The notes beneath the pieces are model-generated. The model saw only the letters and a list, made by a program, of their open reading frames with translations. It searched no databases and had not been told where the DNA came from. This document shows, piece by piece, positions 22,013 through 63,981 of a DNA stretch of 64,000 nt (position 1 is the first letter of the stretch; every line of letters begins with the position of its first letter). The stretch spans positions 14,642-78,641 of the IMG/VR virus record IMGVR_UViG_3300012347_000520; one strand, 5' to 3'. A program made the translations under genes and the position numbers. This DNA is from a virus. Its lineage: Duplodnaviria > Heunggongvirae > Uroviricota > Caudoviricetes.

Positions 22013-22345
22013 ATGGCAACATCTACTTATAAAGTCTTAGGGCAAGTTAACCCTTCTGCAAATACTTTAACTACCTTATACACAGTACCTGCTGATACTT
22101 CTACAGTAGTAAGCACTATAGCTGTTTGTAATCAAGCAGAAAACGCCACAGCATTTAGATTGGCGGTTAGAGTTAATGGCGAATCTATAACTACTAAACA
22201 ATATATTAACTACGATACACCACTACCAGGTAACGATACTATTACCTTAACTATTGGTATGACTTTGGCTGCCGGAGACGTAATAAGCGTATATACAGGC
22301 GCAGCTACAGTTAGTTTTAACGCATTTGGAAGCGAGGTAGCATAA
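22013..22345 (+). CDS. hypothetical small structural protein
   Basis: 110-aa ORF with RBS GGGAG, tightly packed between fibre genes. Confidence 0.4.
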   Translation: MATSTYKVLGQVNPSANTLTTLYTVPADTSTVVSTIAVCNQAENATAFRLAVRVNGESITTKQYINYDTPLPGNDTITLTIGMTLAAGDVISVYTGAATVSFNAFGSEVA

Positions 22346-25300: not shown

Positions 25301-28300
25301 GTTATGCCGCACAAGGGTATTTAGCAGATGTGCGCGTAGTTAAAGGTACAGCAATATATACTAGCAACTTCTTGCCACCACAATTACCACTAACACCAAT
25401 AGTTAATACTAAACTATTAACTTGTCAATATAATGGTGCAGGAAACAACAACGGATTCGTTGACCAATCATGTTTTAACAATATTATTACCAGAAACGGT
25501 AATGTCACACAAGGCACATTTAGTCCTTACAGTCAAACTGGTTGGAGCACGTATTTTAATCGTAGTAGGATAGATTCAACACTAACTGGTAAGTCTCCAG
25601 GTACTGGTTCATTTACATACGAATTTTTCTTCAATGTAGCGGTTAAAGATGCAGCTATTGCTAACGTTGCAGCATTGTTTAGTACACGAGGTGGCGGTAC
25701 AGGTGCAGACGGTTTTGACGTTGAAATAACAACTGCCGGAGCAGTTCTTATAGGAACTTCCGGATCTACATTATTTACCTCAAGCTCCGGGCTAGTAAAT
25801 AATGGGACATGGTACCATTTGGCAATAGTCAGAAATGGCTCAACAAACTGGACAGTTTATTTAAACGGAAGTTCAATTGGAACACTAAGTAATGCAACTA
25901 ACTTTACTTCTGTTAACTTGTACCTTGGAGTGTTTGGTGGTGCTAGTCAAGACTGGTTTAAGGGTTATATAAGTAATTTCAGGTACACTCGTGATGCAGT
26001 TTATACCTCAAATTTTACTCCGTCAACAGTTCCGCTTACTGCAATAACCAATACTGAATTTTTAGGCTTCCAATCAAACGCCCATAAAGATAATTCAGCC
26101 AATAACTTCGCGGTTACTCCAGTTGCTCTAAACGGATCCTCAAGTATTCAAGCTTATTCGCCATTTGGTAGTGTACGTGCTGTGCCTGCTGGATACAGTT
26201 ATAGTTTGAATACTGGTAACGTTGAGGGGTGTGTATATTACCCAGACAAGCCAGCATTAAGAATTGGTACAAATCAATTTACTATGGAATGTTGGGTTAA
26301 TTTAACTCAATGGGTTAATGGTTCCGCAATTATTGCTACAAAACGAGCATACAACTCTACTGGTACTGGTTCTTGGATTTTCTATATTGGTACTAACGGT
26401 GCGGTATCGTTTGACCAACTACAAACTCCTGCAACAGTTATTACAACCGCAGCAGGTGCAGTAACTACAGGATCGTGGTATCATATTGCCTTGACTAGAG
26501 ATAGTAGCAACGTTATGCGAATTTATATCAACGGTGTAAATAGCGGAACAACAGCCCCAACTAGTACCTTTAACTTTAGTAGTACTGAGGCTCTGTATGT
26601 AGGAAAAAATAACGATAGCGGAAATTATAAATTCATTGGCAGAATGTCTAACTTTAGATTAGTAAATGGCACTGCGCTGTATACTGAGCCTTCTAATATC
26701 ACAATACCAACGGCTGCGCTAACTGCAATAAATAATACAGCATTGCTTACTTACCATTCAAATACAGTTGAAGATGGTTCTATTAATAACTTTGTGCCCG
26801 TGGTTATTGGGCCTGGCGTATTAACGGCTTCAACTATTAATCCATTTGGTACTATTACAAATAGTGCTGTATACACACCGAGTGTTAATGGTGGTTCAAT
26901 GTATTTTGATGGAACTGATGATTATTTAACCGCAGTAAACTCAAGATCATTCGACTTGAGTTCCGGTCCTTGGACTATTGAATGTTGGTTTTATCAGTTT
27001 GCTGGAAAAACCGTACAGTTATTTAGTGTGGGTGCGGCAGCATGGAGACTTGACGTTTCATCTACCGGTATGGTAAGTTTTGTTTTCAACAACGGCTCTA
27101 GTGTAGGATCTACGGTTACTACTGCAAAATTGAACTCATGGAATCATGTAGCACAAACATTTAATGCTGATGGAACTACTACAGCAACTAAACTATTTCT
27201 TAACGGTAAGTTAGAATTTGCAGGACAATACGTACCTAGTGCTAATACTACTAGTTTATTTTATGTTGGCAGAAATCCTGATGCGTCTGGCGCTTGGGAC
27301 TTTAATGGCTATATATCAGATATAGCCATTACAAAAGGTATTAGTAAATACAATGCAAATTTTGTGCCACCAGTAACTGCAATATCTACAACCCCAAACA
27401 CTGCGTTCTTGTTAACAGGTACTAATGGGGGTATCCTTGATGCTCATGGAAGCAACAATTTAGAAACTGTTGGTAATGTGCAGCTTGCGCCGGAAACTCC
27501 GTACAGTGGTAATTATTATAGTAGCTACTTTGACGGTACTGGAGATCGTTTAACGTTTACCGGAGGTACGCCGTTCAATTTCGGGTCAGATGACTTCACA
27601 ATCGAAGCATGGGTCAACCCACAAAGTTTCGGTAATCTTGGTCTTGTGTTCTTTAGTAACTTTGTACCAAGCGGTGTTCGATTTGTTCTATATTTAGGTT
27701 CCGCAGGGATTGGAATAGACTCCGGAGGGCAGTTTACTACTTCAGGAACAACTACTTGCTCTCTCGGCACATGGTATCATTGCGCAGTAGTTAAGTCTGG
27801 CACTTCTATCAAGACATTTGTCAATGGAATACAAGTTTCTACTGCTACTTCTCCAGCAACGTACTGGGTAACAGCAAATACTAGTGTAACAGTTGGTGAT
27901 TATATTGATGATTATAGTACTGGATATGGGTATATTTCTAATTTACGAGTAGTTAAAGGTCAAGCACTGTACAGTGGAGCCTTTACTCCTAGTACTAGTC
28001 CACTAACCTCTACTTCAGTAGGGTCTACCGGTCCTGGTGCAGCAGCAAGTGTTACTGGAACAGTTTCTTTATTGACCTGCCAATCTAATAAATTTATTGA
28101 CAATAGCTCTAATAATGCACTACCTACAGTATCTGGCAACCCGGCTGTAAAATCAATGAACCCATTCCAACAAAACACTGGAAATAGTTTGTACTTTGAT
28201 GGCACTGGTGATTACATAGCAAACTATACCGGAGCGGTAAATTTGGTAGACGATAAGTTCATACTACAAAAAGATTTCACAATTGAATTATGGGCTTATG

Positions 28301-28686
28301 GTACTGTTAACAATAGTGTATTCGTTTCGCTTGGTAACGAGAATTCCGGTCGGTTCACGTTTTTTACTAATACTAGTAATCAACTAGCATATGATATCTA
28401 TTTGGTAGGGACAACAACTTTTACTAATAAAGTAGTACCTCTAGGTCAGTGGAATCACATAGCGTTAGTACGCTCTGGTTCTACAATTACTGCTTATGTA
28501 AATGGAACCTCAGCTGGAACAGCATCTCAAGCAGCAGTTTTAGGGAACGGACCTCTTTCAATTGGTGTCAATGCTAATCGTTCAGCCAACTTCTGGAACG
28601 GGTACATCAAAGACCTAAGAATCACCAAAGGCGTAGCGCGCTATACATCGGACTTTACTGCTCCAAGCAAGTTAAAAGCTCTATAA
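22345..28686 (+). CDS. giant tail fibre / adhesin-like protein with N-terminal IPT/Ig-like domains and at least 8 tandem LamG (ConA-like lectin) domains
   Basis: 2113 aa. The motif pair YFDGTGDYL...DFTIE.WVN ... W.HIA.VR.G....Y.NG ... GYISN.R..KG.A.YTS.F.PP..PLT (LamG_3/pentraxin-like) recurs about every 180-220 aa. N-terminal region has IPT/TIG-like and He_PIG-like Ig segments. Confidence 0.7.
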   Translation: MGVRSSSTRRTSAASAISGQIVAINTPAGGVSVAGGRITASTPVSLGVVTAGQSSAASVVVATTAPTVTSLIITDSSFNNLDDTAFDVGGGYAKIIGTNFKAGASAYVNGQALTTTFTSANELRVVVPASAIGSYSLMVFNTDGSGAIYLGLGVSNLPSFVTAAGTLGTFYETTNIVASTTATGDSPITYTLYSGSLPPGATLAADGTITGTSPTEASSTVYSFVIKATDPQNQDSYRAFSITISADVVTWNSPAQGTINLDSTAITPVVLSATAATGNAVSYSVDTLPDGLSFNTNTITGTPTTEGDTVTTLTATSAVTNRTATRTVTWSVSLSDIYFKYTTLLLSGDTAIPSFTNDASLNNAQLTIVGDTKPSSFNPYEEGYYSYFGEGSSASYLSLPTRTGGWLTSGNNFTVEAWVNMSKYPQAHPGYNATVAGTAGNSNGWEWTFNGSTGSNCTSLTFAMKGVASATYTGTFLTNTWYHIAAVRNGTTLTVYVNGVAGATTATLNTWTDNADLRIGADTAPSYPLYFYGNISNFRIVSNTAVYTSTFTPPTGPLTAITNTLVLACQSNRFIDNSSNNFVITKNGDAKVSSAMPFTNPTIVAYNTQYSTKFDGTGDYLTTAANTALDMGTGDFTIECFVNTKGYAGSQYGRGIFALYPSGNYNNRLIVRHTTADNRLNFYGAAGGNPYLGTSGTDGTTALVAGTWNHIAVVRQSGVFRLYINGVQDIVISNQTGVSLASSNCFDIGRTQEGSIPDWNGLISNFRVIKGTCLYPNGTTFTKPSTTLTAVAGTSLLTCQDSRVKDNSSTALAITVGNQAQPIALSPFTMTTSSTTVTSLGSTYFDGTGDYLTLPHNKSLYLESGDFTIEFWYNSSIAFNTGYGPCIGFGYKNTPTGGWVIYRNTVLNTNSITIRVAGQGGAGMVDFSTTSTVEKDVWNHWAVVRSGTSLKWYKNGVLDASTTNSVNITDTDSTTLGYVGYAQQWGYAAQGYLADVRVVKGTAIYTSNFLPPQLPLTPIVNTKLLTCQYNGAGNNNGFVDQSCFNNIITRNGNVTQGTFSPYSQTGWSTYFNRSRIDSTLTGKSPGTGSFTYEFFFNVAVKDAAIANVAALFSTRGGGTGADGFDVEITTAGAVLIGTSGSTLFTSSSGLVNNGTWYHLAIVRNGSTNWTVYLNGSSIGTLSNATNFTSVNLYLGVFGGASQDWFKGYISNFRYTRDAVYTSNFTPSTVPLTAITNTEFLGFQSNAHKDNSANNFAVTPVALNGSSSIQAYSPFGSVRAVPAGYSYSLNTGNVEGCVYYPDKPALRIGTNQFTMECWVNLTQWVNGSAIIATKRAYNSTGTGSWIFYIGTNGAVSFDQLQTPATVITTAAGAVTTGSWYHIALTRDSSNVMRIYINGVNSGTTAPTSTFNFSSTEALYVGKNNDSGNYKFIGRMSNFRLVNGTALYTEPSNITIPTAALTAINNTALLTYHSNTVEDGSINNFVPVVIGPGVLTASTINPFGTITNSAVYTPSVNGGSMYFDGTDDYLTAVNSRSFDLSSGPWTIECWFYQFAGKTVQLFSVGAAAWRLDVSSTGMVSFVFNNGSSVGSTVTTAKLNSWNHVAQTFNADGTTTATKLFLNGKLEFAGQYVPSANTTSLFYVGRNPDASGAWDFNGYISDIAITKGISKYNANFVPPVTAISTTPNTAFLLTGTNGGILDAHGSNNLETVGNVQLAPETPYSGNYYSSYFDGTGDRLTFTGGTPFNFGSDDFTIEAWVNPQSFGNLGLVFFSNFVPSGVRFVLYLGSAGIGIDSGGQFTTSGTTTCSLGTWYHCAVVKSGTSIKTFVNGIQVSTATSPATYWVTANTSVTVGDYIDDYSTGYGYISNLRVVKGQALYSGAFTPSTSPLTSTSVGSTGPGAAASVTGTVSLLTCQSNKFIDNSSNNALPTVSGNPAVKSMNPFQQNTGNSLYFDGTGDYIANYTGAVNLVDDKFILQKDFTIELWAYGTVNNSVFVSLGNENSGRFTFFTNTSNQLAYDIYLVGTTTFTNKVVPLGQWNHIALVRSGSTITAYVNGTSAGTASQAAVLGNGPLSIGVNANRSANFWNGYIKDLRITKGVARYTSDFTAPSKLKAL

Positions 28687-28736: not shown

Positions 28737-31079
28737 ATGACAAAAGCAAGAACTCTTAGTAGTTTAGCAAGTGCTGGAGCTTTAGACTATATAGGTACTG
28801 TAAAGTCTTTAGTTGCAGGTACCGGTCTAACTGGCGGTACAATTACAACAACCGGTACTATTAGTTTAGCTAATACTACCGTAACAGCCGGCAGCTATAC
28901 AGCTGCAAATATTACTATTGATGCTCAAGGACGAATTACTTCGGCCACTAGCGGCACTGCAGTAGCTGCCGCAACTGCTACTGCACGCGGTACTTTGTAT
29001 GGTACTGAAGATGTATTTGCATATTCAAACTCTATAGGATATGGTAGTGCTCCTGCAAGCTACTCCGTAGCTATTGGATATAGCAGTATATCTTCTGGAG
29101 CAAATTTCTCGGTATCAGCAGGGTATAATTCCTCGGTAGATAGCGGTTCTGGCTACTCTATAGCACTAGGCAGTAATGCTAAAGTAAGGAGTGGAACAAA
29201 TTCTGTAGTAATAGGTGCCGGCAGTAATATTGCCTCCGGAGGAAGCTCTGGTAATATGGTACTTCTAGGTGCCGGTGTAGTTGCTGGCTACGGATCTTAT
29301 AACTCTATTGTAATAGGTCAAAATGCTAGGCTTGGCAATTATGCTCCTAACGCTATTATTCTAGAAGCAACAGGCAGCAGTACTACTTACGGGTCAGGGT
29401 TTTATGTTAACCCTATTACTCAAGCAAATACTTCGTATACTTTATTCTACAATCCTACTACGAAAAAAGTTACCTACGATTCGGCTCCTGGCGGTAGTAG
29501 TTTATATGTATATGACGATAGTAATCTATTAACTACTGCAGCTAGTACTATTAACTTTGTCGGAAACGGCGTCACTGCAACTTCTAGTGGTGGGTCAGTT
29601 ACTGTAGAAGTAGCCGGCGGCTCTAACTTAGATGGATTATCTGACGTAGTGTTGACTAGCCCTACAACCGGTCAACTACTACAATACAATGGAACTAACT
29701 GGGTAAACGCAACTGTAAGTACTGGAGGTACAACAGAAGAAACTACTATTACTACAGCTACAAGACTAGCTCCAATGTATGTTAATCAGTTCAACAGTTC
29801 TTACGTTAGAATAGGTACTGATTCGCCCGCTAAAGCAACACATATTAAAGACGCTATTGTAGCAGCGGCGTCCGTTGCCTCTTCTGGTGGTCAACAAGTT
29901 ATAGTAGAGATTATATATAATAATACAATTTTTAGTTTAGCTTTAGATTCAAATGCTAGTAGCTACGTTACTATATTTAATTCTGATGCTGTAAATATAC
30001 AGAACTATCAAGTCAACTCTTTCTCACAAAATGACTCTAGACCTGCTGGAATTTACGTAACCTTATCACCATCCCAGTACAACCAAATAGCTGCAAAAAC
30101 TTTATCGTTTACGTTTTTAGGCAGTGCCAGTACATTAGGAACAGTTTTTACTACTAATAAGCCTTACGGTGTGTATTACACACCCAGCAACTTCGGACAA
30201 CCAGTAGGTAGCCTAGGCCCTACTACCTCTCCTAGTACAACTCCTGAAATTATAAATGTTGTGGCTACAGGACAAACTCTAGATGTAGTATTTGCTAATA
30301 ATGTTGTAACTATTACAGGTGTATCAGGTACAAGCAGTCAATTCATAACATTTGTTTTAGGTATGACTAGCATTACTAGTGGTGGTGGTGGTGGTGCTAC
30401 CGAATCCGTGGTAACTGTAGAAACACCTAGTAATTTTAACGGACAATTTACTGCACAACCAAATACAACAGGTTCTCGTGGGTACGTGTTCGTAAATAAC
30501 TGGGATGGGGGCCTTAACTCCTTATCTTCAAACAGTCCAACTAACTGGGGCGTAGTACAAGGTAGTACACAGTGGCTATACTCACAAGCAGCTAATCCAA
30601 CCACGGGGGTTTCTATTAGTTGGGACCCTATTTGGTATGGATCTTTTACAGCTGTAAAGATTCAGGGTGTTGACGGAGGCGGCGTTAATTCTCCTAATAG
30701 ACACGTGATCTATCAACAAACTATTTATGGGTATAATAATGGTATATACTGGCCTCCACAACAAAACTGGGCACAAAACTATCAAATGTATTCCGGCGGA
30801 GTAGCCGCTTATGCAGTTGTACTTGCTGCTAATAATAGCCCACTAGCTAGTTGGATGCAATCAGTAACGGTTAACTCTACCTATACTAATATGGTAGATA
30901 TTACCATAGGCACTACCGGACCTATATCAGCAGTTGGTAACACGGACTTTAAGTATATGGTACTACGTATAAAACCCGAAGCATTTAATTCTGGTAATTT
31001 AGGTAATGCTCCTTTATTTACATTTTCCGGCCCTCCTAGTGACATACCACTAAACTGGGTAATTGCAGGTATACAATAA
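28737..31079 (+). CDS. tail fibre / tail spike protein
   Basis: 780 aa, Ser/Gly/Thr/Asn-rich with short beta-helix-like repeats (SVAIGYSS..GANFSVSAGYNSS..SGYSIALGSNAKV). RBS AAGGAAA. Confidence 0.55.
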   Translation: MTKARTLSSLASAGALDYIGTVKSLVAGTGLTGGTITTTGTISLANTTVTAGSYTAANITIDAQGRITSATSGTAVAAATATARGTLYGTEDVFAYSNSIGYGSAPASYSVAIGYSSISSGANFSVSAGYNSSVDSGSGYSIALGSNAKVRSGTNSVVIGAGSNIASGGSSGNMVLLGAGVVAGYGSYNSIVIGQNARLGNYAPNAIILEATGSSTTYGSGFYVNPITQANTSYTLFYNPTTKKVTYDSAPGGSSLYVYDDSNLLTTAASTINFVGNGVTATSSGGSVTVEVAGGSNLDGLSDVVLTSPTTGQLLQYNGTNWVNATVSTGGTTEETTITTATRLAPMYVNQFNSSYVRIGTDSPAKATHIKDAIVAAASVASSGGQQVIVEIIYNNTIFSLALDSNASSYVTIFNSDAVNIQNYQVNSFSQNDSRPAGIYVTLSPSQYNQIAAKTLSFTFLGSASTLGTVFTTNKPYGVYYTPSNFGQPVGSLGPTTSPSTTPEIINVVATGQTLDVVFANNVVTITGVSGTSSQFITFVLGMTSITSGGGGGATESVVTVETPSNFNGQFTAQPNTTGSRGYVFVNNWDGGLNSLSSNSPTNWGVVQGSTQWLYSQAANPTTGVSISWDPIWYGSFTAVKIQGVDGGGVNSPNRHVIYQQTIYGYNNGIYWPPQQNWAQNYQMYSGGVAAYAVVLAANNSPLASWMQSVTVNSTYTNMVDITIGTTGPISAVGNTDFKYMVLRIKPEAFNSGNLGNAPLFTFSGPPSDIPLNWVIAGIQ

Positions 31080-31501
31080 TGACTACACAAATAACATTTT
31101 ACATACTAAATACTGATACTTCTCCTACGTATAACTTTCTTTATGTAGGCAGCTTTATTAATGGAGATACTGTATCTGAAGCTAACTATGAGGAATTAGG
31201 TTTAACGCCTATTACCTTTACAGAGCAACCAGAAGGTCGAGTACGTGCACAAGCTACAAAAGTTGATGGTACATGGACTGGTAGTTGGCAAGAAGTAACT
31301 GACTGGGTATTGGAAACAGAAGCTAAAGCGCAGCAGGTACGTCGCCAACGCGACAACAGGCTGGCAGCTAGCGACTGGACTCAAGTTTCGGATGCTCCAG
31401 TAGATAAACAAGCTTGGGCTGTTTACAGACAAGCTTTACGCGACGTTTCAGACCAAGCAGGGTTTCCAAACCAGATTACTTGGCCTCTTAAACCAGCTTA
31501 A
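31079..31501 (+). CDS. tail fibre assembly protein (Tfa / gp38-like chaperone)
   Basis: C-terminal motif RDNRLAASDWTQ..D.P....W..YRQALRD......WP.KP matches the Caudovirales tail fibre assembly protein family. Start overlaps the fibre gene stop. Confidence 0.65.
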   Translation: MTTQITFYILNTDTSPTYNFLYVGSFINGDTVSEANYEELGLTPITFTEQPEGRVRAQATKVDGTWTGSWQEVTDWVLETEAKAQQVRRQRDNRLAASDWTQVSDAPVDKQAWAVYRQALRDVSDQAGFPNQITWPLKPA

Positions 31502-31508
31502 TAAACCG

Positions 31509-31535
31509 CACAGGCCAGTAACCCTGGCCTGTGTT
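31509..31535 (+). terminator. hairpin, possible weak terminator
   Basis: cacaggccag-taaccc-ctggcctgtg inverted repeat. The T-tract is weak. Confidence 0.3.
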
Positions 31536-31548
31536 CAAAGGAAGATTA

Positions 31549-31950
31549 ATGTTTTGGATTTTTAAAATTTTTCCAGACTGGTTATTCTACGCAATACTTT
31601 TAACAGGACTACTAGTCTTCTTTGCTAGTTACCTAAAGTCACTACGAATGTATGACTTAATGTTAAAAAGTTCAGGTTTACTAACCATAGTCTCAGGAAT
31701 TTTTCTTCTTGGTATGTTATACGCAGATAATACTTGGAAACAAGCAGCTCTAGTCCTACAAGCTAAAGCTGATGTTATTGCTGTTGAATCAAAAAACGTA
31801 AGTACTAATATTGACAAAGACTTAGCTGTTAAAAAACAATTAAGTAAAGATAAGGTATTAACAATTACTGAATACATTGACAGCAAAGTAAAAACTACCT
31901 GCGAGCTACCACAAGAAGTACTAAATGCACACAATAAGGCCACAAAATGA
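31549..31950 (+). CDS. membrane protein, putative i-spanin (Rz-like); alternatively a holin
   Basis: Start set at the ATG with RBS AAGGAAG. The track ORF uses an upstream GTG. Two N-terminal hydrophobic helices, then a periplasmic coiled-coil region. Coupled to the downstream lipoprotein by an ATGA overlap. Confidence 0.45.
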   Translation: MFWIFKIFPDWLFYAILLTGLLVFFASYLKSLRMYDLMLKSSGLLTIVSGIFLLGMLYADNTWKQAALVLQAKADVIAVESKNVSTNIDKDLAVKKQLSKDKVLTITEYIDSKVKTTCELPQEVLNAHNKATK

Positions 31951-32210
31951 AATACTTAGTACTAATTTTAGCCCTAACCTTATCTGCATGTACAACTGTA
32001 GTGCCAGTAACCACCAAGTTTCCTGAACAGCCCACAGAACTAAAAGAAATGTGCGCTCCTTTAAAAGAAGCTACTTCTACACAAGTTACTGAGTTCACGA
32101 AAACTGTAGTTACTAACTACCAACAATATCACGACTGTAGCGACAAAGTAACTGCGTGGCAGACATGGTACAATAAACAAAAGCAACTTTATGAGGAGCT
32201 TAATAAGTGA
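31947..32210 (+). CDS. outer-membrane lipoprotein, putative o-spanin (Rz1-like)
   Basis: Signal peptide with lipobox LALTLSAC. Small, Cys-containing mature part. Immediately upstream of the endolysin. Confidence 0.55.
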   Translation: MKYLVLILALTLSACTTVVPVTTKFPEQPTELKEMCAPLKEATSTQVTEFTKTVVTNYQQYHDCSDKVTAWQTWYNKQKQLYEELNK

Positions 32211-32821
32211 CACTAACACTTAATCAATTAAAACAAATTATACCAAAAAATCCTTATGTGGATCACTGGTACGAAGCCTTGGTACAACTACTTGACGAAT
32301 ATCAAATTGATACTCCACAACGTCAAGCAGCGTTTTTGGCGCAGTGTGCGCACGAATCGGGCGGCTTCACCGCTATCAAAGAAAATTTAAACTATCGTGC
32401 GCAAACACTGCGTAAGGTATTTCCTAAGTATTTTCCAACGGATGATATTGCAGCGCAGTACGCAGGTCACCAAGAAGCTATTGCTAATCGAGTTTATGCT
32501 AACCGCATGGGCAACGGCGATGAGGCGTCTGGCGATGGTTATCGTTACTGTGGCAGAGGTCTTATACAGTTAACTGGTAAAGACAACTACCAATGGTTTG
32601 CTGATTCGCTAGGGATTTCACCAGAAGAAGCTTCGGAGTATATGGCTACTTTTGAAGGAGCTTGTCAGTCAGCTTGCTGGTTCTGGGAAACCAATAACCT
32701 AAACCAATTTGCTGATCGTGGAGATATTTTAACCATGACCAAACGCATTAATGGCGGAACTATCGGCCTAGAAGACCGTAAAAAACACTACGAACACGCC
32801 CTACACATTCTAGGAGCTTAA
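32207..32821 (+). CDS. endolysin, glycoside hydrolase family 19 (chitinase-like lysozyme)
   Basis: GH19 signature stretches QRQAAFLAQCAHESGGF...NLNY and YCGRGLIQLTGKDNY. GTG start overlapping the upstream stop (GTGA). Confidence 0.8.
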   Translation: MTLTLNQLKQIIPKNPYVDHWYEALVQLLDEYQIDTPQRQAAFLAQCAHESGGFTAIKENLNYRAQTLRKVFPKYFPTDDIAAQYAGHQEAIANRVYANRMGNGDEASGDGYRYCGRGLIQLTGKDNYQWFADSLGISPEEASEYMATFEGACQSACWFWETNNLNQFADRGDILTMTKRINGGTIGLEDRKKHYEHALHILGA

Positions 32822-32835
32822 TACAAGGAGGTTAA

Positions 32836-33600
32836 ATGGATCCATTAACCCTCTTTGCACTAGCAAATGGAGCTGTATCCGCTGTAAAAGCAGGATGTAA
32901 GCTATATAAGGATATTAAAGGTGCTGCTGGAGAAGTCAAAGAAGTTTTAAAAGACTTAGACAACCAGTTTAAGACTATCCATAAAGATAAACCTCCTAGC
33001 CCAGAAGCTAAAAAGCAGTTCCAAGAAGAAAAAGCTCGCATTGTTGAGTTAAATCAAAAAGACCCTGGCGATGTTTACTCTACAATCGGTGAACAGCTAG
33101 GCGTTTACTTTGAGAACCGCGCTAAATGTATTGCTATCTGGGAAGAAGAAGAACGTAGAGCTTCAGAAGTTTATCAAGGAGGTGCTTCTATTGGTAAACG
33201 AGCTTTAGAACGTGTTTTAATGCGTAAAAAGCTAGAGCAAATGGAAGTAGACTTACGAGAACTAATGGTGTATCAAAGTCCTCCTGAGCTTGGCGGACTG
33301 TATAACGAAGTGTTCGAAATGATGACTAAAATCACAGCCGAACAGTCTAAAGCTATTGCCAAGCAAATGCGTTTAGCTCATGCCAAGGAACTGCAACGTA
33401 AGCGTGAACTAAATCAACTATACGTAGATATAGGCATGGGCATAACAGCCTTAATACTAGCAGCTTCTTTAGGATTATCTATGGCTTATGTAGTAGAAGA
33501 CAGAATCAAAAAATACCCTCAGTATGGCACTAATTGGATACCTAGAACAGAGGAGCAGCGACGTAAAGATGCTGAGCCGGTTGTTTACATAGGCAGATAA
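32836..33600 (+). CDS. hypothetical protein with C-terminal transmembrane helix (lysis-associated?)
   Basis: Perfect RBS AAGGAGG. Helical, charged N-terminal domain and C-terminal TM (GMGITALILAASLGLSMAYVV). Confidence 0.5.
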   Translation: MDPLTLFALANGAVSAVKAGCKLYKDIKGAAGEVKEVLKDLDNQFKTIHKDKPPSPEAKKQFQEEKARIVELNQKDPGDVYSTIGEQLGVYFENRAKCIAIWEEEERRASEVYQGGASIGKRALERVLMRKKLEQMEVDLRELMVYQSPPELGGLYNEVFEMMTKITAEQSKAIAKQMRLAHAKELQRKRELNQLYVDIGMGITALILAASLGLSMAYVVEDRIKKYPQYGTNWIPRTEEQRRKDAEPVVYIGR

Positions 33601-33623
33601 TATTAACAAGAAAAGGATCTTCA

Positions 33624-34067
33624 ATGGCAGAAGAACTAAAGCCTGAAGAACAGGCACAAGAAGATTGGATCACCAAAAAATGGCGTCCAATGATGGCAAT
33701 GATGTATATGTGCGTATGTGCGTGTGACTTTATTTTATTTCCTATTATGTGGACAATTGTTCAGTTCTGGGAAAACGAAGCAGTTAATGACGCTTTTCGT
33801 CAGTGGGCTCCACTAACCCTGCAAGGCGGTGGTTTATTTCATATGGCTATGGGTGCTGTACTTGGTATTAGTGCTTGGAGTCGCGGACAAGAAAAAATGG
33901 CTGGAGCAGCAACTACTCCACCACAGCCTCAAGCACTACAGCAAGGCCTAAACGGTACTACAGCACAGGACATTCCTACTGCACCAACTCAACCAAGAGT
34001 TCAAGCGCCTCAAGCAGGCTTCAATGGTAAACTGGCACCTCCGCCAGCACCTCAACCACCACTATAA
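33624..34067 (+). CDS. membrane protein, holin candidate
   Basis: Two predicted TM helices (MMAMMYMCVCACDFILFPIMWTIV; GGLFHMAMGAVLGISAW) and a Pro/Gln-rich C-terminal tail. RBS AAAGGA. Confidence 0.4.
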   Translation: MAEELKPEEQAQEDWITKKWRPMMAMMYMCVCACDFILFPIMWTIVQFWENEAVNDAFRQWAPLTLQGGGLFHMAMGAVLGISAWSRGQEKMAGAATTPPQPQALQQGLNGTTAQDIPTAPTQPRVQAPQAGFNGKLAPPPAPQPPL

Positions 34068-35116: not shown

Positions 35117-35587
35117 TTAAATAATATTCCAGCTAGTGCCATCAAATATAACCATAACAGCATCCTGAGCACCAAGTACTTTAGTTGCAGCTGTGTTTAT
35201 TTGTTGTCCACTAGTTCCTGTTACAGTTATATTTCCTGTATGCTGATTTTTAACAACATAAACTTTACCTAGTGTTCCAGTAGGTAAAGTTATTGTTATA
35301 TTGTTAATCGTAGCACCAATATAATAATCACTATCAAGTACTGTATAGTCTACAGCAGTAAGATGAACTGCGTATATGTTACTAACGCTACCTGTTGAAG
35401 ATAATACTCCCTGTGGAGTAATAGACAAACCACTGCCTACTCGAATTACGCCAAGACTGTTAGCAGTTGCAATTTCGCAATCTAAGGTAACTGGAATAAT
35501 ACCTGCAGGTGCAAGTGCCGAAGGAGGAGGATTTTGCACTAAAGCTGTTCCTGCCAAAACAGTTTGGGGTTGTCTGTTATAGCTCAT
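35117..35587 (-). CDS. small fibre-like protein, paralog C (shared C-terminal domain)
   Basis: The track ORF starts at a TTG at 35608. ATG at 35587 (MSYNRQPQ..) lies 1 nt after the upstream stop. C-terminal ~60 aa (..GNITVTGTSGQQINTAATKVLGAQDAVMVIFDGTSWNII) is related to the C-termini of 35589..35987 and 36546..36995. Confidence 0.5.
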   Translation of the reverse strand: MSYNRQPQTVLAGTALVQNPPPSALAPAGIIPVTLDCEIATANSLGVIRVGSGLSITPQGVLSSTGSVSNIYAVHLTAVDYTVLDSDYYIGATINNITITLPTGTLGKVYVVKNQHTGNITVTGTSGQQINTAATKVLGAQDAVMVIFDGTSWNII

Positions 35588-35588
35588 A

Positions 35589-35987
35589 TTATAGAATCTT
35601 CCACTCAACGCCTGAGTAAACTAGTGTTAATGCTCCGTAAGGTGCATTGATAGTAGCTGTAGCAGCTCCATCAATAGTTCCTGCTGCAGGAGTGATAGTA
35701 ATAGGTGTTGCAGGCGCTGCTAAACCTAGACCGTCCTTGATATAGAATAGTTGTCCTGTAACGCCGGCAGGTAAGTTAACCGCTACAGCTACTGGACCAG
35801 GTACTTCTACCGATACTACATCATCAGCGTTAGTGACTGCGACCGGAGTAGCAACAGCTATTCGCACTGCTTGAACAGGACTACCAGTTGCGCTGATAGT
35901 AATTGTATTAGCTCCGGTACCCGTAGTAGGTGTTACGGTAATATTGGTACCTGCTAAGATTGAGGTTGGGTTGTTTGTGTATGACAT
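35589..35987 (-). CDS. small fibre-like protein, paralog B
   Basis: MSYTNNP.. N-terminus parallel to its paralogs. C-terminus ..TIDGAATATINAPYGALTLVYSGVEWKIL. Confidence 0.5.
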   Translation of the reverse strand: MSYTNNPTSILAGTNITVTPTTGTGANTITISATGSPVQAVRIAVATPVAVTNADDVVSVEVPGPVAVAVNLPAGVTGQLFYIKDGLGLAAPATPITITPAAGTIDGAATATINAPYGALTLVYSGVEWKIL

Positions 35988-36000
35988 GAAGTCTCCTTAA

Positions 36001-36549
36001 TTAAATTTGAGTTACGACAATTTTTACGCTTGGAGTAGCCGGTCGTGTCGGCGTTACTTGAGCAGCTGTGGGTAGTAATCGCATTGCAATATCTGGGCTA
36101 CTCCACTTTATTTGTACAAAATCACCAGCAACAGCAGTAATTAAAAAGATGCCTGTACGATACCCAGCATTACCTCCTGTATCTACCAACGTAACCTCTA
36201 TGTTAGAGTTTGGTACATTAACACCATTTTGTGATAGCCAAATACTGATAGGGTCTGTACCACCATCGGTTTTGCTAATTTGCATAGTCATTGTAATAGT
36301 GTAAACACCTGTATTAGCAAAAGTAATTTGATTGCCTGCTACAATGCTTACACCGTTAGCTGATTCAGTTGTATTAAATGCTGTATTATTTCCTGTGTTA
36401 ATTACAGGGTTTGTTTGTAGTGTAGAGTCAGAAAAATATCCGTACCAGTTAGGTATTTTATCTACCGTTCCGTTTGTTACTGATAGTCCAGTTCCCACTT
36501 TTAGTATACCAAAGTTTGTAGCTGTTGCTAGTGGGGATCTGTAACTCAT
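36001..36549 (-). CDS. small fibre-like protein D (different C-terminal domain)
   Basis: Start chosen at MSYRSP.. (36549), which overlaps the upstream stop by ATGA. The longer track ORF starts at 36561. Beta-rich, Asn/Thr/Gly-rich. Confidence 0.45.
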   Translation of the reverse strand: MSYRSPLATATNFGILKVGTGLSVTNGTVDKIPNWYGYFSDSTLQTNPVINTGNNTAFNTTESANGVSIVAGNQITFANTGVYTITMTMQISKTDGGTDPISIWLSQNGVNVPNSNIEVTLVDTGGNAGYRTGIFLITAVAGDFVQIKWSSPDIAMRLLPTAAQVTPTRPATPSVKIVVTQI

Positions 36550-36995
36550 ACAATATTCCATTCTGTGCCGTTAAACACTAAAGTAATACTACCGTAGTCA
36601 GTATTGATTAAAGCACTTACGGATCCATCAATATTTGTTGCGGCTGTAACAATAATAGAGTTTGTTGAGGCATTTCCGCTTAAGTCTTTGATAATAAATA
36701 CTGTTCCTACAGGAGCTATAGGTAATACTACGCTTGATGGCGCTGCCACGTTAACGCCAATAAAGTAATCGGCTAAGGTAGCCAAATACGGTGTTGTAGT
36801 TACAATAGTAACGGGTACTAAACCAGGTGTGCCGGCAGGGCCTTGTGGGCCTGCAGGACCTTGCGGACCAGCTGGCCCCGGAGGGCCAGGAGGGCCTACT
36901 ATTATAGAGCTGTTAATAAATAAGTCATTATCGCTACAAAATGGTGCAAATGGTACCAGGGGTAGTAGGGGCGATATAGTTTGTGTTTGATACAT
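36546..36995 (-). CDS. collagen-like triple-helix repeat protein with fibre-paralog C-terminal domain
   Basis: [25 protein letters not shown] run of Gly-X-Y triplets. C-terminus ..[29 protein letters not shown] is homologous to paralogs B and C. Start 1 nt after the Dps stop. Confidence 0.6.
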
Positions 36996-36996
36996 A

Positions 36997-37449
36997 TTAT
37001 GCTTTCATACTAGCGTATAACATCCAGCCGTGTTTACGGTGTTGGTCCATACGTTCTGATAAAAAATTGGATAAACCATGCTCTTGCATTGCTTCAGCTT
37101 TAGTATACGCAGAAATTAAGTCTGTATTGATTTTACCATTAGCTAAATACAGGTTCTGTATCATTTCATATGGCGTATGTTGCTCCATAATAGGCTCACC
37201 TATAATACTAGATAAGTTATGTAGTTCCATAAGTGTAGCAGGAGCGTAGCCTCGTATGCTTCTAATCTGCTCTGCAAATACGTCAATTTTTGAGTCTACT
37301 TCGCTATATACTTTACCAAATAAATCATGGTATTCTAAAAAGTCTGGACCTTCGACATTCCAGTGGTAGCACGCAGCCACTAAAGAAAACGCAAACGTAG
37401 TGGCAAAAGCCTTCTTTGTTAGTTCTTGTAATTCTTCTAAATCTGTCAT
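36997..37449 (-). CDS. dps: Dps-like ferritin-superfamily protein
   Basis: Dps signature HWNVEGPDFLEYHDLFGKVYSE...D..AE (ferroxidase-site His/Asp/Glu spacing). 150 aa. RBS AGGAGA. Confidence 0.65.
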   Translation of the reverse strand: MTDLEELQELTKKAFATTFAFSLVAACYHWNVEGPDFLEYHDLFGKVYSEVDSKIDVFAEQIRSIRGYAPATLMELHNLSSIIGEPIMEQHTPYEMIQNLYLANGKINTDLISAYTKAEAMQEHGLSNFLSERMDQHRKHGWMLYASMKA

Positions 37450-37467: not shown

Positions 37468-37498
37468 AAAGCCCCACAACCTGTGGTTGCAGGGCTTA
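37468..37498 (-). terminator. rho-independent terminator (minus strand) after the Gly/Gln-rich gene
   Basis: On the minus strand, AAGCCCTGCAACC-ACA-GGTTGTGGGGCTT hairpin followed by TTTTTCTTT, then the RBS of the Dps gene. Confidence 0.6.
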
Positions 37499-37515: not shown

Positions 37516-38475
37516 TTAACGAATGTTAGTGTTGGTATTTGTTGGGCTAGCTGTTAGCGTTCCGCTACCAACGTTGATTGCTTCGTTAGTTGAACGAATG
37601 CTTTGACCTAAACCGTAGATTAGGTTAGCAAGTTGACCAAACTGGGCTTGTTGCTGTTGTTGCTGTTGCATCTGATTGATGTTGTTAGTAGTAGTAATTT
37701 CTACACCACGAGTAGCAGCACCAATGTTTTGCTGGCTACGTAACTCGATTAGAGCAGCATTAGCTTCTTGTAGTTGACGAGTTAGATTTTGTTCGTACTG
37801 TGCTGTAATTAGAGCACGAGTTTTTTCACCATCGTTAGAAATATTCTGTGATATAACATAACGGTTTTCCATGATGTTTTGGTTAGTCTGAGCAGCTGTA
37901 CTCATAACAGCTTCTTTAACTCCCTCAACACGAGCTGCTAGAGCTTGGGTAATGCTGTTTAATTGTCCAGTAATACCTAGTGTTTGAGTAGCTTGTGAAG
38001 CTTCCATAGTTGCTGTTGAAACTGCAACGGATTTATCTACTGCACCAATGCCGGCCATTAAGTCCATATTTGCTTGGTTTTGTTCTGGAGGATTACGTAA
38101 AACTGCGCCGCCTACTCCGCCTTCGTTGCCGAATAAACCTCCGTTGCCGTTGCGTAGTAAGCTTCCTAAGATTAATCCACCGATTAATCCGCCGCCACTG
38201 CCAAAACCTAGACCGCCGTCTCCACTGCCGCCGCCCATAATCATACTTGGTGTCATAATTTCTGCCATAGTTTTTCCTTCTGTACCTTGGGTACTTGTTG
38301 TTGCGTCTGTTGCAACTTGTTTAATTTGTTTTGCTAACTTTTCGTAGTATTTACGAGCTTGGTCAGCCTGCTGATTTAGCGCACTCATTAGATCATCACT
38401 AACCGCTTTTGCCATTTCTGGGTCTACTGTGGTTACTGGTGTTTCTGCTGGTACGCCTTCAATTGTATCCGCCAT
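37516..38475 (-). CDS. Gly/Gln-rich protein of unknown function, highly expressed
   Basis: Start set at MADTIEG (RBS AAGGA). Acidic helical N-terminus, then a Gly-rich hydrophobic glycine-zipper-like core (GGGSGDGGLGFGSGGGLIGGLILGSLL..GGLFGNEGGVGG). Thr/Gln/Asn-rich helical C-terminal half with a poly-Q tract (QQQQQQQQ). Consensus promoter upstream and terminator downstream. Confidence 0.55.
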   Translation of the reverse strand: MADTIEGVPAETPVTTVDPEMAKAVSDDLMSALNQQADQARKYYEKLAKQIKQVATDATTSTQGTEGKTMAEIMTPSMIMGGGSGDGGLGFGSGGGLIGGLILGSLLRNGNGGLFGNEGGVGGAVLRNPPEQNQANMDLMAGIGAVDKSVAVSTATMEASQATQTLGITGQLNSITQALAARVEGVKEAVMSTAAQTNQNIMENRYVISQNISNDGEKTRALITAQYEQNLTRQLQEANAALIELRSQQNIGAATRGVEITTTNNINQMQQQQQQQAQFGQLANLIYGLGQSIRSTNEAINVGSGTLTASPTNTNTNIR

Positions 38476-38539
38476 GATAATCCTTGGGATATAAATGATA
38501 ATGCGTATCACGCGCAGTCAAATTTTTTCGACTTAGATA

Positions 38540-38568
38540 ATTATAACACTTTTGCTATATCTGGTCAA
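38540..38568 (-). promoter_or_regulatory. sigma70 consensus-like promoter on the minus strand (TTGACC-17-TATAAT)
   Basis: Minus-strand sequence ttgacc agatatagcaaaagtgt tataat lies about 65 nt upstream of the Gly/Gln-rich gene start. Confidence 0.5.
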
Positions 38569-38666
38569 TAAGAGCTTTCAGGGTTCCTGGAGCATAAATG
38601 CTAGCTGGCATAAATGCTGCAGGAACAGGATACAACTATAGAAAAAGAATTATGTTCCGGAAATGA

Positions 38667-38702
38667 AAAAAGCCCCGTAGATTTCTCTACGGGGCTTTTT
38701 TG
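38667..38702. terminator. bidirectional rho-independent terminator
   Basis: aaaagccccgtag-atttct-ctacggggctttttt with A-run and T-run on both sides. Lies downstream of the 38714 gene on the minus strand. Confidence 0.65.
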
Positions 38703-38713: not shown

Positions 38714-38914
38714 TTATTCGGCTACTGGATTAGCGGCTTCTTGCTCGGCAGCTTGCATTGCTGCAATTTGTGCTTGAGCTTGAGTTTTAATCTTTTCGCT
38801 TAGAGGGTTGCAGATTTTACCTGGCAACTCTTGTAAAGCTGCTAAGATAATATTAGCTTCTTCTAAGTTTAGTTCAAAGTTGAAGGTTGGGTTTGGGTTT
38901 ACTTCTTGTGTCAT
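38714..38914 (-). CDS. hypothetical small acidic protein
   Basis: Start chosen at MTQEVNPN.., 4 nt after the RNR stop. The track ORF begins 54 nt earlier, overlapping the RNR 3' end. Helical with an Ala/Gln-rich C-terminus. Confidence 0.35.
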   Translation of the reverse strand: MTQEVNPNPTFNFELNLEEANIILAALQELPGKICNPLSEKIKTQAQAQIAAMQAAEQEAANPVAE

Positions 38915-38918
38915 AATT

Positions 38919-40886
38919 TTACTTGATAGGGCATGCGCCGGTTGCACATTCAGCATCCGTGATTTCATCGAAGCTGTTTGTATTGTTTAAGTCTACTTCA
39001 CCAAGTGTTTTCACATACTCTTGGTAATCTTGTTGTGTTACTACTTCTTGAGGAAGGTATAAGTAACCCAAGTCTTTAGCCGTTTTAGTAGGATCAGTTC
39101 TGTAGATGAAAGAAACACCTACATAACAATCCCAATTCTCTAGAAGCCAGTCAATAATTGCAGGCACTTCACTAGGATCGTAACTAATAGTTACTGAAGT
39201 ATTTTGTTGATTCCACGAAGTCTGTAAGAGCTTATAACGCTCTAGCTGAACAATTGCGGACTCAATATTAACTTCTTTACCATCAACCTCGTCGAAAGGT
39301 ACTCCGTCCCACATCACAGGGAATGTTACCAATACTCCACTATCATCCACAGGGTGGTTGATAACACGATAGCCAGCGTCACGAAGCTTCTCCACGACTG
39401 GGTCATGCTTGCTAAACTGCACATTGTTGAAGATGTACTTTCCAAGTGGTTTGTGTACTCCTTCGGTCGTATCCATAATTTTGGACAGTGTGCCAGACGG
39501 CTTAATACAAGTAACGTTTTTAGGTGCTGGTAAGCCCAATTCGTTAGCCATACCAATAGCAGCACCAGTAGCAGTACGCTTAAGATACTCATAGTCATAA
39601 CTTCCCATGTCTGGACGCATAGCGATACCAGTTAAACCTACTCCGCATAAGCGCAAGAAGTAGTTATTTAAATGCCAAGATTCTTGCAAGATACCGTCAT
39701 TTAAGTCTACGCAAGTCTGACGGTAGTTAGCACGAGCAGCTAAACGAATAGCTGCGTGTAAGCCAGCAGTATCACCTTTAAATTTAGCAATATCGGTTTC
39801 TGTTAAGTTACAGAAAGCCTTATTACCTAACAAGATCTCTACACATGGGTTAGCACCTTTAAACCAAGGAGCACGACGTAGAGCTTCTACTTCGTTAATA
39901 AATCCTGGCTCTGAACCGCCTGCTTTAATCATCATCGCAAAGATTTTTTCTAAGTCTGATTTTAAAGGAGTCTTTTTAAACACTAAAGAGTTATTAGACT
40001 GTGTACGGTGTGCATTATTGTGCAACCACCAATCTTTTTTGGCTACCGCAAACTCTTGCCACTCTGGTTGATCGTAATCGAAAAGAGCAATTTCAGCGCT
40101 TCGGCGGCTACTGAGAATAGTACCCAGATGATTAACAATGTCCAGAATATCCATCCTAGTGAGTAAACTATCAGCACGACCATTAAGAATATTGGCAATA
40201 CTAACATAAGCGCTGCTAATAGCAGCATCCCCAGAACTAATCCATCCATAGCCTTTTAACCTTTCACCAGCTGGGCGTAACTGCGAGAAGTCAAGAACCA
40301 GCGTATCAGCAGGATACTTGCCTGCAATTAGTTTACCAATAGACTTAGCCCAAGCTTCAGCTGAGTCGCCTACTTGAATAGTCCAAATCTTTGTTTCTTG
40401 ATCAAATGTTTCTACGTTTTTTTCATTACCGCCTTTACCTGTGCGGGTTGAGCGTACAACTTTGATATTTTTAATAGGCTTTGAAAAGCCGTTTAGTGTT
40501 CCCACGATTGGTTTGAAACCAACGCCGCAACCTTGTAGCAATAGCCATAAGACGTCAACTACGTCATAGATTGTTTCAACGTGTGTAAACGAACAGTTAA
40601 ACTGAGACGCTTCACGTGTTTTAGCTACATTAGTACCACCAAGCCATAGTGTACGGCCTGACATTAATACTTTGCGATCTAGCATTAACTGCTCTAGATC
40701 ATATAATTCTGCATACTCTAAGTCATTTAAATCACGATTTACAGCACGTTCCCACAACCATTGTTGATGGTCAATAACGCGAGCTACCGTTTCTTGCCAT
40801 GTTTCAAAGTTCTTGCCGTCATCACTAGTTGGACGGTTATATGTACGACGTGTAATTACCTGTGCTCGTGTAGATGGTGTATTCAT
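38919..40886 (-). CDS. nrdJ: ribonucleotide reductase, probably class II (B12-dependent, NrdJ-like)
   Basis: 655-aa RNR-like catalytic protein with a C-terminal redox Cys pair in tail CATGACPIK. No NrdB/NrdG partner in the window. Glutaredoxin encoded nearby. Class assignment is from memory. Confidence 0.55.
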   Translation of the reverse strand: MNTPSTRAQVITRRTYNRPTSDDGKNFETWQETVARVIDHQQWLWERAVNRDLNDLEYAELYDLEQLMLDRKVLMSGRTLWLGGTNVAKTREASQFNCSFTHVETIYDVVDVLWLLLQGCGVGFKPIVGTLNGFSKPIKNIKVVRSTRTGKGGNEKNVETFDQETKIWTIQVGDSAEAWAKSIGKLIAGKYPADTLVLDFSQLRPAGERLKGYGWISSGDAAISSAYVSIANILNGRADSLLTRMDILDIVNHLGTILSSRRSAEIALFDYDQPEWQEFAVAKKDWWLHNNAHRTQSNNSLVFKKTPLKSDLEKIFAMMIKAGGSEPGFINEVEALRRAPWFKGANPCVEILLGNKAFCNLTETDIAKFKGDTAGLHAAIRLAARANYRQTCVDLNDGILQESWHLNNYFLRLCGVGLTGIAMRPDMGSYDYEYLKRTATGAAIGMANELGLPAPKNVTCIKPSGTLSKIMDTTEGVHKPLGKYIFNNVQFSKHDPVVEKLRDAGYRVINHPVDDSGVLVTFPVMWDGVPFDEVDGKEVNIESAIVQLERYKLLQTSWNQQNTSVTISYDPSEVPAIIDWLLENWDCYVGVSFIYRTDPTKTAKDLGYLYLPQEVVTQQDYQEYVKTLGEVDLNNTNSFDEITDAECATGACPIK

Positions 40887-63972: not shown

Positions 63973-63981
63973 CTAACAACG

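Follow-up and report, generated by a model that had tools for sequence, protein, structure and literature searches.

A phage protein family with a glycine-zipper segment and a predicted helical rod, encoded in a mobile gene cassette

We analysed a stretch of 64,000 nucleotides (nt) of Caudoviricetes DNA (positions 14,642 to 78,641 of IMG/VR record IMGVR_UViG_3300012347_000520), referred to below as the window, and in it an open reading frame (ORF) of 319 amino acids (aa). The ORF lies on the minus strand and is the founding member of an unnamed protein family. It belongs to a cassette that has its own expression signals, a predicted second start codon nested in the gene and a group of small fibre-like genes downstream. 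The initial annotation had seen in it a highly expressed Gly/Gln-rich protein with its own promoter, a good ribosome-binding site (RBS) and flanking terminators, and made no mention of its orientation, the second start, the neighbouring partners or how large the family is. The features of the locus are listed here.

38665–38700 (approximate), no strand assigned: bidirectional terminator hairpin closing the replication-gene transcription unit upstream of the cassette (−26 kcal/mol, z = −6.7)
38540–38568, minus: sigma-70-type promoter, TTGACC and TATAAT 17 nt apart, with an extended −10 TG (11 of 12 consensus matches)
38476–38533, minus: 5' untranslated region (UTR) of the 319-aa gene (comparison with relatives)
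37516–38475, minus: coding sequence of the 319-aa protein, founding member of the family (ORF calling, homologues)
38266–38280, minus: internal Shine-Dalgarno (SD) sequence GAAGGA (38275–38280) and in-frame ATG (38266–38268) of Met70, with a predicted 250-aa product of N-terminus MAEIMTPS (conservation in relatives)
38089–38244, minus: Gly-rich segment, residues 78–129 (52 aa, 42% Gly), with a hydrophobic glycine zipper at residues 89–107 (38155–38211) (composition, hydrophobicity)
37585–38085, minus: predicted continuous alpha-helix, residues 131–297, approximately 25 nm, the first part variable in length and the second with fixed spacing (AlphaFold2; predicted local distance difference test score, pLDDT, above 90 for residues 160–250)
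37807–37836, minus: family signature NDGEKTRALI, residues 214–223 (alignment; centre of the hhalign match to a sister branch)
37642–37674, minus: Gln tract QMQQQQQQQAQ, residues 268–278 (family alignment)
37519–37578, minus: conserved C-terminal tail INVGSGTLTASPTNTNTNIR, residues 300–319 (alignment; 15–16 residues from G303 to the end in 190 of 191 members)
37469–37497, minus: intrinsic terminator, a 13-bp stem and T run directly 3' of the stop codon (hairpin search)
35117–36995, minus: four downstream fibre-like genes (profile matches, neighbour clustering), namely:
36546–36995, minus: collagen repeat plus beta-sandwich gene (profile matches)
36001–36561, minus: C1q-like head gene (profile matches)
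35589–35987 and 35117–35608, minus: beta-sandwich paralogues (sequence comparison)

The 319-aa gene and its expression signals

The ORF runs from an ATG at 38473–38475 to a TAA at 37516–37518. An alternative start, GTG at 38511, which would give a product of 331 aa, is disfavoured by the relatives, which begin MADT or MTDT. That the ORF is not a chance one follows from its thousands of homologues and from a promoter/terminator design that recurs in relatives; the gene is real and conserved at the protein level. The extreme composition described initially also holds, with 38 Gly, 36 Ala, 32 Thr, 32 Gln and 25 Asn residues and no Cys, His or Trp. An acidic N-terminus (residues 1–24) leads into an amphipathic helix (approximately residues 19–63), followed by the Gly-rich segment with its motifs GLGFG and GGLFG, which contain the only two FG motifs of the protein. 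Within this segment lies the hydrophobic stretch GLGFGSGGGLIGGLILGSLL (residues 88–107), which includes a GxxxGxxxG motif. Gln and Asn make up 30% of the second half of the protein. The poly-Q tract is present as annotated, but its run has seven Gln rather than eight, and it is not terminal, with 41 residues beyond it.

All of the expression signals proposed initially were found. The SD sequence AAGGA (38481–38485) stands 5 nt 5' of the ATG. A perfect TATAAT is kept in the same place in 10 T5-like relatives, and one further locus, L046, has the same TTGACC/17/TATAAT promoter together with an equivalent terminator hairpin. Immediately past the stop codon, a GC-rich hairpin and T run are found in all 15 related loci for which there is downstream sequence; the stem sequences differ by lineage, and an RBS and the next gene follow 10–20 nt further on. 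Taken together, these signals point to a high level of expression.

The 5' UTR has structure of its own. A stem-loop at the predicted 5' end of the transcript (38516–38533, minus) varies in sequence between relatives, and it is followed by the element CTGCGCGTGATACGCATTATCA (38496–38517, minus), with an inverted repeat TGATA-N5-TATCA. The element CTGCGCG(A)TGATACGCnnTATCA is identical in 8 relatives even though their proteins are 59–76% identical, and this invariant element could be an operator or a translational control site. An RNAalifold analysis of the 5' UTR detected no covariation, on an alignment in which MAFFT had misaligned the first hairpin, and an Rfam scan of the UTR and terminator region gave no family match, with sub-threshold terminator-like matches only.

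A large family with a predicted rod and a putative nested start

In agreement with the initial annotation, the protein resembles no family that can be named. Searches against Pfam-A and PHROGs v4 gave no significant match (best expectation values, E, of 0.14 and 0.17), the best E in NCBIfam 20 was 0.018, far below the family cut-off, a profile search of PDB sequences reached 1.1 and PADLOC 2.0 returned zero matches. Divergent members of the family likewise had no significant match in the profile libraries, and the Gly-zipper, YtxH and holin models of Pfam matched neither the 319-aa protein nor its divergent relatives. A Foldseek search of the AlphaFold2 model against the PDB returned zero matches, as expected for a single helix. 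A confident match to a known structural family, which had been named beforehand as a result that would speak against the initial annotation, did not appear, and neither did the other such result, signs of an untranslated ORF.

The family itself is large. Matches to the 319-aa protein come from more than 2097 clusters at 90% identity, the best of them 57–77% identical and all labelled hypothetical. A profile search recovered 404 clusters at 50% identity with E ≤ 1e-3 (250 with E ≤ 1e-10), and searches from two divergent members brought 955 and 1157 additional matches. The contigs that carry the family are T5-like, lambda-J-like, Mu-like, myovirus and megaphage (459–697 kb). Among cultured phages it is present in Acinetobacter phage At2 (XLQ30922), Iodobacter phage PhiPLPE (gp38), Flavobacterium phage FL-1 (APZ82874) and Aeromonas phage phiWae15; PhiPLPE gp38 is annotated as a putative tail-fiber protein and is located in the tail-fibre region. 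Remnants occur in at least three bacterial genomes (Buttiauxella, Lelliottia and Pseudomonas), and the hosts of the cultured carriers, as well as the bacteria with a copy, are all Gram-negative. A sister branch, with more than 1000 matches beyond these and on contigs as large as 697 kb, shares a homologous core (hhalign probability 97.7%, E = 2e-12) and lacks the glycine-rich segment; its N-terminal half consists of Asp/Arg-rich repeats with faint Apolipoprotein (PF01442) matches, and one of its members is named 'gas vesicle protein' by its source.

The architecture of the protein was modelled with AlphaFold2 as a monomer from a 97-sequence alignment (mean pLDDT 72.7). The model predicts an N-terminal helix at residues 19–63 (pLDDT approximately 90), a disordered region at residues 66–128 save for a short helix at 100–106, with pLDDT below 50 elsewhere in the Gly-rich part, and then the long continuous helix. 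A helical hairpin turning at the invariant N-D-G was considered and rejected, as the model keeps one continuous helix.

The spacing of conserved residues in 325 members aligned to the family profile divides the protein, from the zipper onwards, into parts of distinct behaviour. The distance from the zipper to G144 varies continuously, from 26 to 60 residues, and this smooth variation identifies a flexible linker. The distance from G144 to D215, on the other hand, takes discrete values: 60, 67, 71, 78 (122 members), 82, 89 (100 members), 93, 96, 100 (30 members), 107, 118 and 122. These values differ by 11 or 7 residues, as they would in a register-keeping coiled-coil rod whose length can be adjusted. 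Beyond this point the spacings are fixed, with 29 residues from D215 to E244 in 319 of 322 members, 24 from E244 to Q268 in 277 of 321, 35 or 36 from Q268 to G303, and 15 or 16 from there to the end. The last 105 residues or so are a C-terminal module of fixed geometry, comprising NDGEKTRALI, an ELR motif, a glutamine ladder and the tail. All 97 sequences have the ladder residues Q268, Q272, Q274, Q276 and Q278, and 68 of the 72 distant ones also have Q270; the tail follows the family pattern I-N-V/I-G-x-G...N-P-T-N-T-N-T-N-V/I-R. For the rod, this quantisation of insertions and deletions is more informative than Fourier analysis, which detected amphipathic periodicity only in the N-terminal helix (residues 25–58) and lent no support to a canonical heptad coiled coil in residues 130–299.

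The hydrophobic segment holds the motif GxxxGxxxG at G96, G100 and G104, and the motif recurs in 85% of the 325 members. The glycine-zipper core of the initial annotation is thus present, while its quality as a transmembrane (TM) helix is borderline. The best Kyte-Doolittle 19-residue average is 1.57 in the 319-aa protein, the family median is 1.51 and 25% of the members reach 1.6; on the Hessa scale, the summed free energy is positive in every member, with a family median of +3.4 kcal/mol. We therefore describe the segment as marginally transmembrane-like. Its flanks show a topology-like bias, with a mean of 0.26 Lys plus Arg in the 15 residues that precede it against 1.11 after it, and the N-termini of short-form proteins are free of both residues.

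The gene is predicted to yield two nested products, the full 319 aa and 250 aa from Met70. The sequence AAGGA stands 6–7 nt before the Met70 ATG in 13 of 13 long-form close relatives, and the peptides encoded there vary (LKD, EKE, LKE, TEG). Genes that are naturally short begin precisely at the ATG equivalent to Met70, with an ordinary RBS. In 22 of 23 non-identical genes with unrelated N-terminal extensions, an SD-like match of at least 4 nt precedes an in-frame ATG located 15–40 residues upstream of the zipper, compared with 10% of 156 control internal ATGs; in the former count the best of several candidate Met codons was chosen, and three of the picks sit in GGAGG-like glycine codons. Extensions longer than 100 aa occur in approximately 15% of the members, some with a beta-rich domain, and 66 of the 325 have almost none. 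The beta-rich domain, of some 100 aa (MWTI.DA..N.TN.V.IP.DG.ITIS.P..V...AYVND...), was seen in L046 (9001–9345), P0019, P0083, P0124, P0136, P0139, P0177 and L023. It had no match in Pfam, nor in cultured phages by tblastn, and in the members that have it a conserved internal SD sequence and ATG lie just past it.

Partner genes and genomic setting

Gene context was studied in 40 loci by clustering of neighbours, a sample biased to loci with the exact NDGEKTRALI-encoding pattern. In 17 of the 40, with backbones that are unrelated, the next genes on that strand code for small collagen-like or beta-sandwich proteins; the window has four such genes, and the megaphage loci (697 kb and 459 kb) also have collagen-like genes after the family gene. 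The partner domains match tail-fibre PHROGs, Collagen and Phage_depo_C, in addition to a C1q/cerebellin-like head; a tblastn search with one paralogue gave no match. In cultured phages the C1q-like head is the C-terminal domain of larger proteins of the structural region, such as a Limnohabitans DC31 protein and gp44 of phiAC-1, whose gene comes next after that of the major head protein.

A different partner, a small protein with a conserved 'P-domain' of about 50 residues, is found immediately downstream in at least 14 other loci, including PhiPLPE (gp39). The At2-type partner looks like a divergent version of it; the downstream partners are XLQ30921 in At2 and APZ82924 in FL-1. The collagen-like and P-domain types did not co-occur in the sampled loci. 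None of the cassette proteins has a signal peptide, and a BLAST search of segments of the 319-aa protein against the window proteome for a shared docking peptide gave nothing significant.

Regulators of the GerE/LuxR type flank the family gene in several lineages and in both megaphage loci. In the latter (L048, 459-kb contig, 5523–10275; L049, 697-kb contig, 7201–9727), one or more GerE/LuxR-type or sigma-70 region-4-like regulators are followed by a sister-branch gene and then by one or more collagen-like genes, a trio that appears to travel together.

The wider surroundings of the family gene are varied. It follows a lambda-J-like giant protein and a Phage_tail_APC chaperone in L037, L010 and L011, and fibre-like proteins of 1348–1411 aa in At2 and L025; one context places it between a Mu-F-like head protein and a protease, and in L016 it stands beside holin-like and i-spanin-like genes. 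On a 109-kb T5-like contig the cassette occupies the same junction as in the window, in the opposite orientation, with the layout terminator, TTGACC/17/TATAAT, gene, terminator. On another contig, of 99 kb, it stands before the terminase as the first unit of the late operon, and in FL-1 it is opposite in direction to all its neighbours. A cassette found in such varied positions and orientations with signals of its own is therefore autonomous and mobile.

The window itself, by its gene content, is part of a phage distantly related to T5, and a megablast search with 20 kb of it against 50,697 phage records found no relative at the DNA level. Its tail genes form a full T5-like set, with a major tail protein and a tape measure of 2193 aa (7566–14147). 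The gene order on the other strand is also T5-like, with helicase, Mre11/Rad50, nuclease, flap endonuclease and dUTPase genes, followed by a class II ribonucleotide reductase. The early region of T5 terminates with dut, T5.132 and a bidirectional terminator, converging on the late genes. The cassette lies at the equivalent early/late junction, beyond the counterpart of the T5 terminator after dut/T5.132.

Several other genes were noted in the window. A prohead serine protease (residues 29–157) and an HK97-type capsid protein (residues 364–638) are fused in a single 656-aa ORF (598–2568, plus), which has approximately 34% identity to Demerecviridae head genes; in T5-like phages the tblastn match spans two adjacent genes. 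A 2113-aa protein (22345–28686, plus) with eight Laminin_G_3 (concanavalin-like) domains and a He_PIG Ig-like domain is presumably a giant lateral fibre or adhesin. Downstream of a 780-aa fibre there is a complete lysis region (31079–34067, plus), which starts with a Tfa-like chaperone (31079–31501) and includes an i-spanin (31531–31950), an overlapping o-spanin with the lipobox LSAC (31947–32210), a GH19-like endolysin (32207–32821), a coiled-coil protein of 254 aa that carries a TM segment at its C-terminus, and a holin-like protein of 147 aa. Genes for tRNA-Met (CAT) and tRNA-Val (TAC) are located at 61715–61789 and 63908–63982 (minus), respectively. Between the reductase and the cassette, an 84-aa ORF (38714–38968, minus) is conserved in relatives (cluster c20: ...EEANIILAALQELPGK..NPL..KI...) and had no family match; its faint resemblance to the P-domain partner motif is unconfirmed. 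Finally, a Dps/ferritin-like gene (36997–37449, minus; Pfam Ferritin, 5e-15) lies between the 319-aa gene and the fibre-like genes. As it is placed differently, inverted or absent in relatives, it has the look of an independent insertion into this hot spot.

Possible roles of the rod and its partners

We tentatively favour the view that the 319-aa protein is the stalk, or carrier, of a set of accessory virion fibres. Base rates and gene linkage favour a virion-associated role, and the linkage to collagen-like and C1q-like genes, with tail-fibre neighbours in several loci, supports a fibre or stalk in particular. So do the predicted rod, its quantised length and its Cys-, His- and Trp-free composition, which is like that of phage fibres. 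The absence of signal peptides in the cassette proteins counts in the same direction, as does the small gene after the family gene, which reproduces the usual order of fibre and then chaperone, and signals as strong and conserved as this promoter and terminator would suit an accessory protein present in many copies on the virion. The partners in the window, at 132–186 aa, are unusually small and would need a carrier. In this fibre or stalk version, the abundant virion protein suggested by the initial annotation is the best supported of its three proposals.

Mechanistically, the cassette (terminator, strong promoter, structured 5' UTR, gene, terminator and partners) would build extra fibres on the virion, either on the capsid or on the tail. 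The rods would oligomerise, probably as trimers, with the glycine zipper and hinge as their proximal joint. A particular virion would be reached through an adaptor, the N-terminal extension of the long form, which differs by lineage, and the nested start would give rods with or without it. The invariant C-terminal module would in turn dock the downstream products, small collagen-like trimers that bear beta-sandwich or C1q-like heads, and in other lineages the small P-domain protein would act like a fibre-assembly chaperone. The terminator past the rod gene would set a high ratio of rod to partner.

The nearest precedents for such a stalk are T4 fibritin (Wac) and other accessory coiled-coil fibres such as the phi29 head fibre gp8.5. 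Their long coiled coils end in a short conserved element and differ in length among relatives, as the predicted rod does, and they come from dispensable, separately signalled genes and are functionally tied to other fibres. There is, however, no match to them in sequence or fold, and the placement on the virion is a proposal. Furthermore, a length that changes by 11 residues as well as by 7 speaks for hendecad and not purely heptad packing, and the glycine-zipper segment, the nested start and the Gln ladder have no counterpart in these proteins. Collagen-like fibres or decoration proteins of phages include the PRD1 spike P5 and SPP1 gp12, and BclA is a C1q-headed collagen fibre. These resemble the downstream partners, with a Gly-X-Y repeat or short stalk and a beta-sandwich or C1q-like head, whereas the 319-aa protein itself has no collagen repeat.

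A number of observations weigh against a virion stalk. A conserved hydrophobic glycine zipper is unusual for a fibre, and the Lys/Arg bias of its flanks is membrane-topology-like. Fourier analysis of residues 130–299 found no significant heptad or hendecad hydrophobic period, so that the packing mode and the oligomeric state of the rod remain inferred; the monomer model is a single helix of 167 residues. The 66 members nearly devoid of an N-terminal extension mean that an adaptor is not general, and the autonomy of the cassette, with its opposite orientation in FL-1, also fits a non-virion accessory gene. A weak hint comes from PhiPLPE, where gp38 lacks the 'confirmed by MS' (mass spectrometry) note that gp34 and gp35 carry.

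The main rival, to which we give only slightly less weight, is a membrane tether in the infected cell, and the zipper motif, kept in register in 85% of the members, and the Lys/Arg bias would both fit it. The short isoform would insert or embed its zipper in the inner membrane, N-out/C-in, and oligomerise through GxxxGxxxG, so that the 25-nm rod would reach into the cytoplasm and the C-terminal module would bind partners there; the charged 69-aa extension would block translocation of the long-isoform N-terminus and modulate the short one, as in a holin/antiholin pair. Possible roles would be superinfection exclusion, the organisation of assembly or replication at the membrane, or lysis timing. 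The predicted nested start falls immediately before the hydrophobic segment, the short-form N-termini are free of Lys and Arg, and the cassette proteins, having no signal peptides, could come together on the cytoplasmic side of the membrane. Like morons, the cassettes are autonomous and in some cases reversed, the family is common to unrelated virion types, all known hosts are Gram-negative, and the sister branch adds the faint Apolipoprotein matches of its repeats and the member named as a gas vesicle protein. Two in-frame products, with an N-terminal extension just before a hydrophobic segment rich in small residues, as predicted here, are made by the dual-start holin/antiholin genes of lambda (S107/S105) and phage 21 (S68/S71); their extensions, however, are of 2–3 aa rather than 69, holins are of about 60–220 aa with clear TM segments instead of 250–319 aa with a marginal segment and a 25-nm rod, and the endolysin gene of the window is approximately 4.7 kb away on the other strand. 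YtxH/GvpP-like and apolipoprotein-like anchored helical proteins similarly have an N-terminal hydrophobic anchor of small residues followed by long helices, a likeness that is architectural only, with no Pfam match for the 319-aa protein. Against a tether stand the marginal hydrophobicity across the family, the sister branch without a zipper, the N-terminal extensions of more than 100 aa, including the beta-rich domain, in about 15% of the members, and the negative Gly-zipper, YtxH and holin searches; to our knowledge, moreover, no cytoplasmic role in phage infection has been described for collagen-like or C1q-like proteins. Accordingly, of the membrane-inserting glycine zipper proposed initially the motif is retained, while insertion is put in question by family-wide hydrophobicity and by the sister branch. 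We consider it unlikely that the whole cassette is a new phage 'tether' system, in which a two-isoform glycine-zipper rod would link a lipid membrane, which could be the host inner membrane during infection or the target-cell membrane at entry, to collagen-like/C1q-like trimers or a P-domain partner, under the putative control of a dedicated GerE/LuxR regulator in some lineages. Such a system would be a new type of contact between phage and membrane, common to phages from the T5-like ones up to 700-kb megaphages.

A membrane could also be met from within the virion. The moderately hydrophobic Gly-rich segment is nearer to fusion peptides and tape-measure segments than to signal anchors, and an 11-residue length quantum has been described for tape-measure proteins too, which share the long alpha-helix and Gly-rich hydrophobic stretches; the best match in the same genome, a non-significant one, is a Gly-rich stretch of the 2193-aa tape measure, and one locus lies between a Mu-F-like head protein and a protease. 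A virion-borne, membrane-active 'mini tape-measure' or ejection protein, whose Gly-rich segment would enter the host envelope like a fusion peptide, is nevertheless improbable: the phage already has a bona fide tape measure and a full tail set, and the 319-aa gene is outside the tail operon, approximately 23 kb away on the other strand, has about 1/7 of the length and lacks a chaperone frameshift pair. The sister branch again lacks the hydrophobic segment, and no homology to known ejection proteins was found in PHROGs or PDB searches. Less probable still is a spanin- or TolA-like protein across the periplasm, N-in/C-out, with the zipper in the inner membrane and the helix extending to the outer one. 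The length of the helix is close to the width of the periplasm, the known hosts are all Gram-negative and the L016 locus adjoins holin-like and i-spanin-like genes, but the charge bias runs the wrong way for an N-in topology, the partners have no signal peptides, the rod length varies by about 30%, and an i-spanin/o-spanin pair, an endolysin and holin-like genes are present elsewhere in the window (31531–34067). With that separate pair next to the endolysin, and no embedded same-strand ORF, lipobox or nearby lipoprotein gene at the 319-aa locus to provide a partner, identity as a two-component spanin was rejected. We regard as very improbable the condensate-forming scaffold of the initial annotation, which would act through FG/GLFG-like and poly-Q stickers. 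The Gly content of residues 78–129 with its FG motifs and low pLDDT, and the Gln/Asn-rich second half, would suit it; yet there are only two FG motifs, the Gln tract lies inside a confidently predicted helix of quantised length, its alternate Gln residues are invariant, the spacings (29, 24, 35–36 and 16) are fixed and the tail is nearly invariant. Conservation, including that of the zipper in register, is thus positional and not compositional, which argues against a purely condensate-type role.

The family, the design of the cassette, the nested start and the quantised rod were found in none of the resources searched (databases and literature keywords). The likely kind of protein, an accessory coiled-coil fibre or anchored rod, is known. 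This is one of the larger phage families lacking a name, spanning siphoviruses, myoviruses and megaphages, and in the window its expression signals are among the strongest of the genome and conserved partners accompany it. The 11/7-residue quantisation and the predicted nested start are concrete enough to be put to the test, and At2, PhiPLPE and FL-1 are cultured. A membrane tether, if true, would add a new class to the known phage-host interfaces. If, as we tentatively favour, the protein is a carrier of small collagen-like adhesins, the cassette would be a portable module for host range or decoration, of use in engineering and in the annotation of metagenomic phages.

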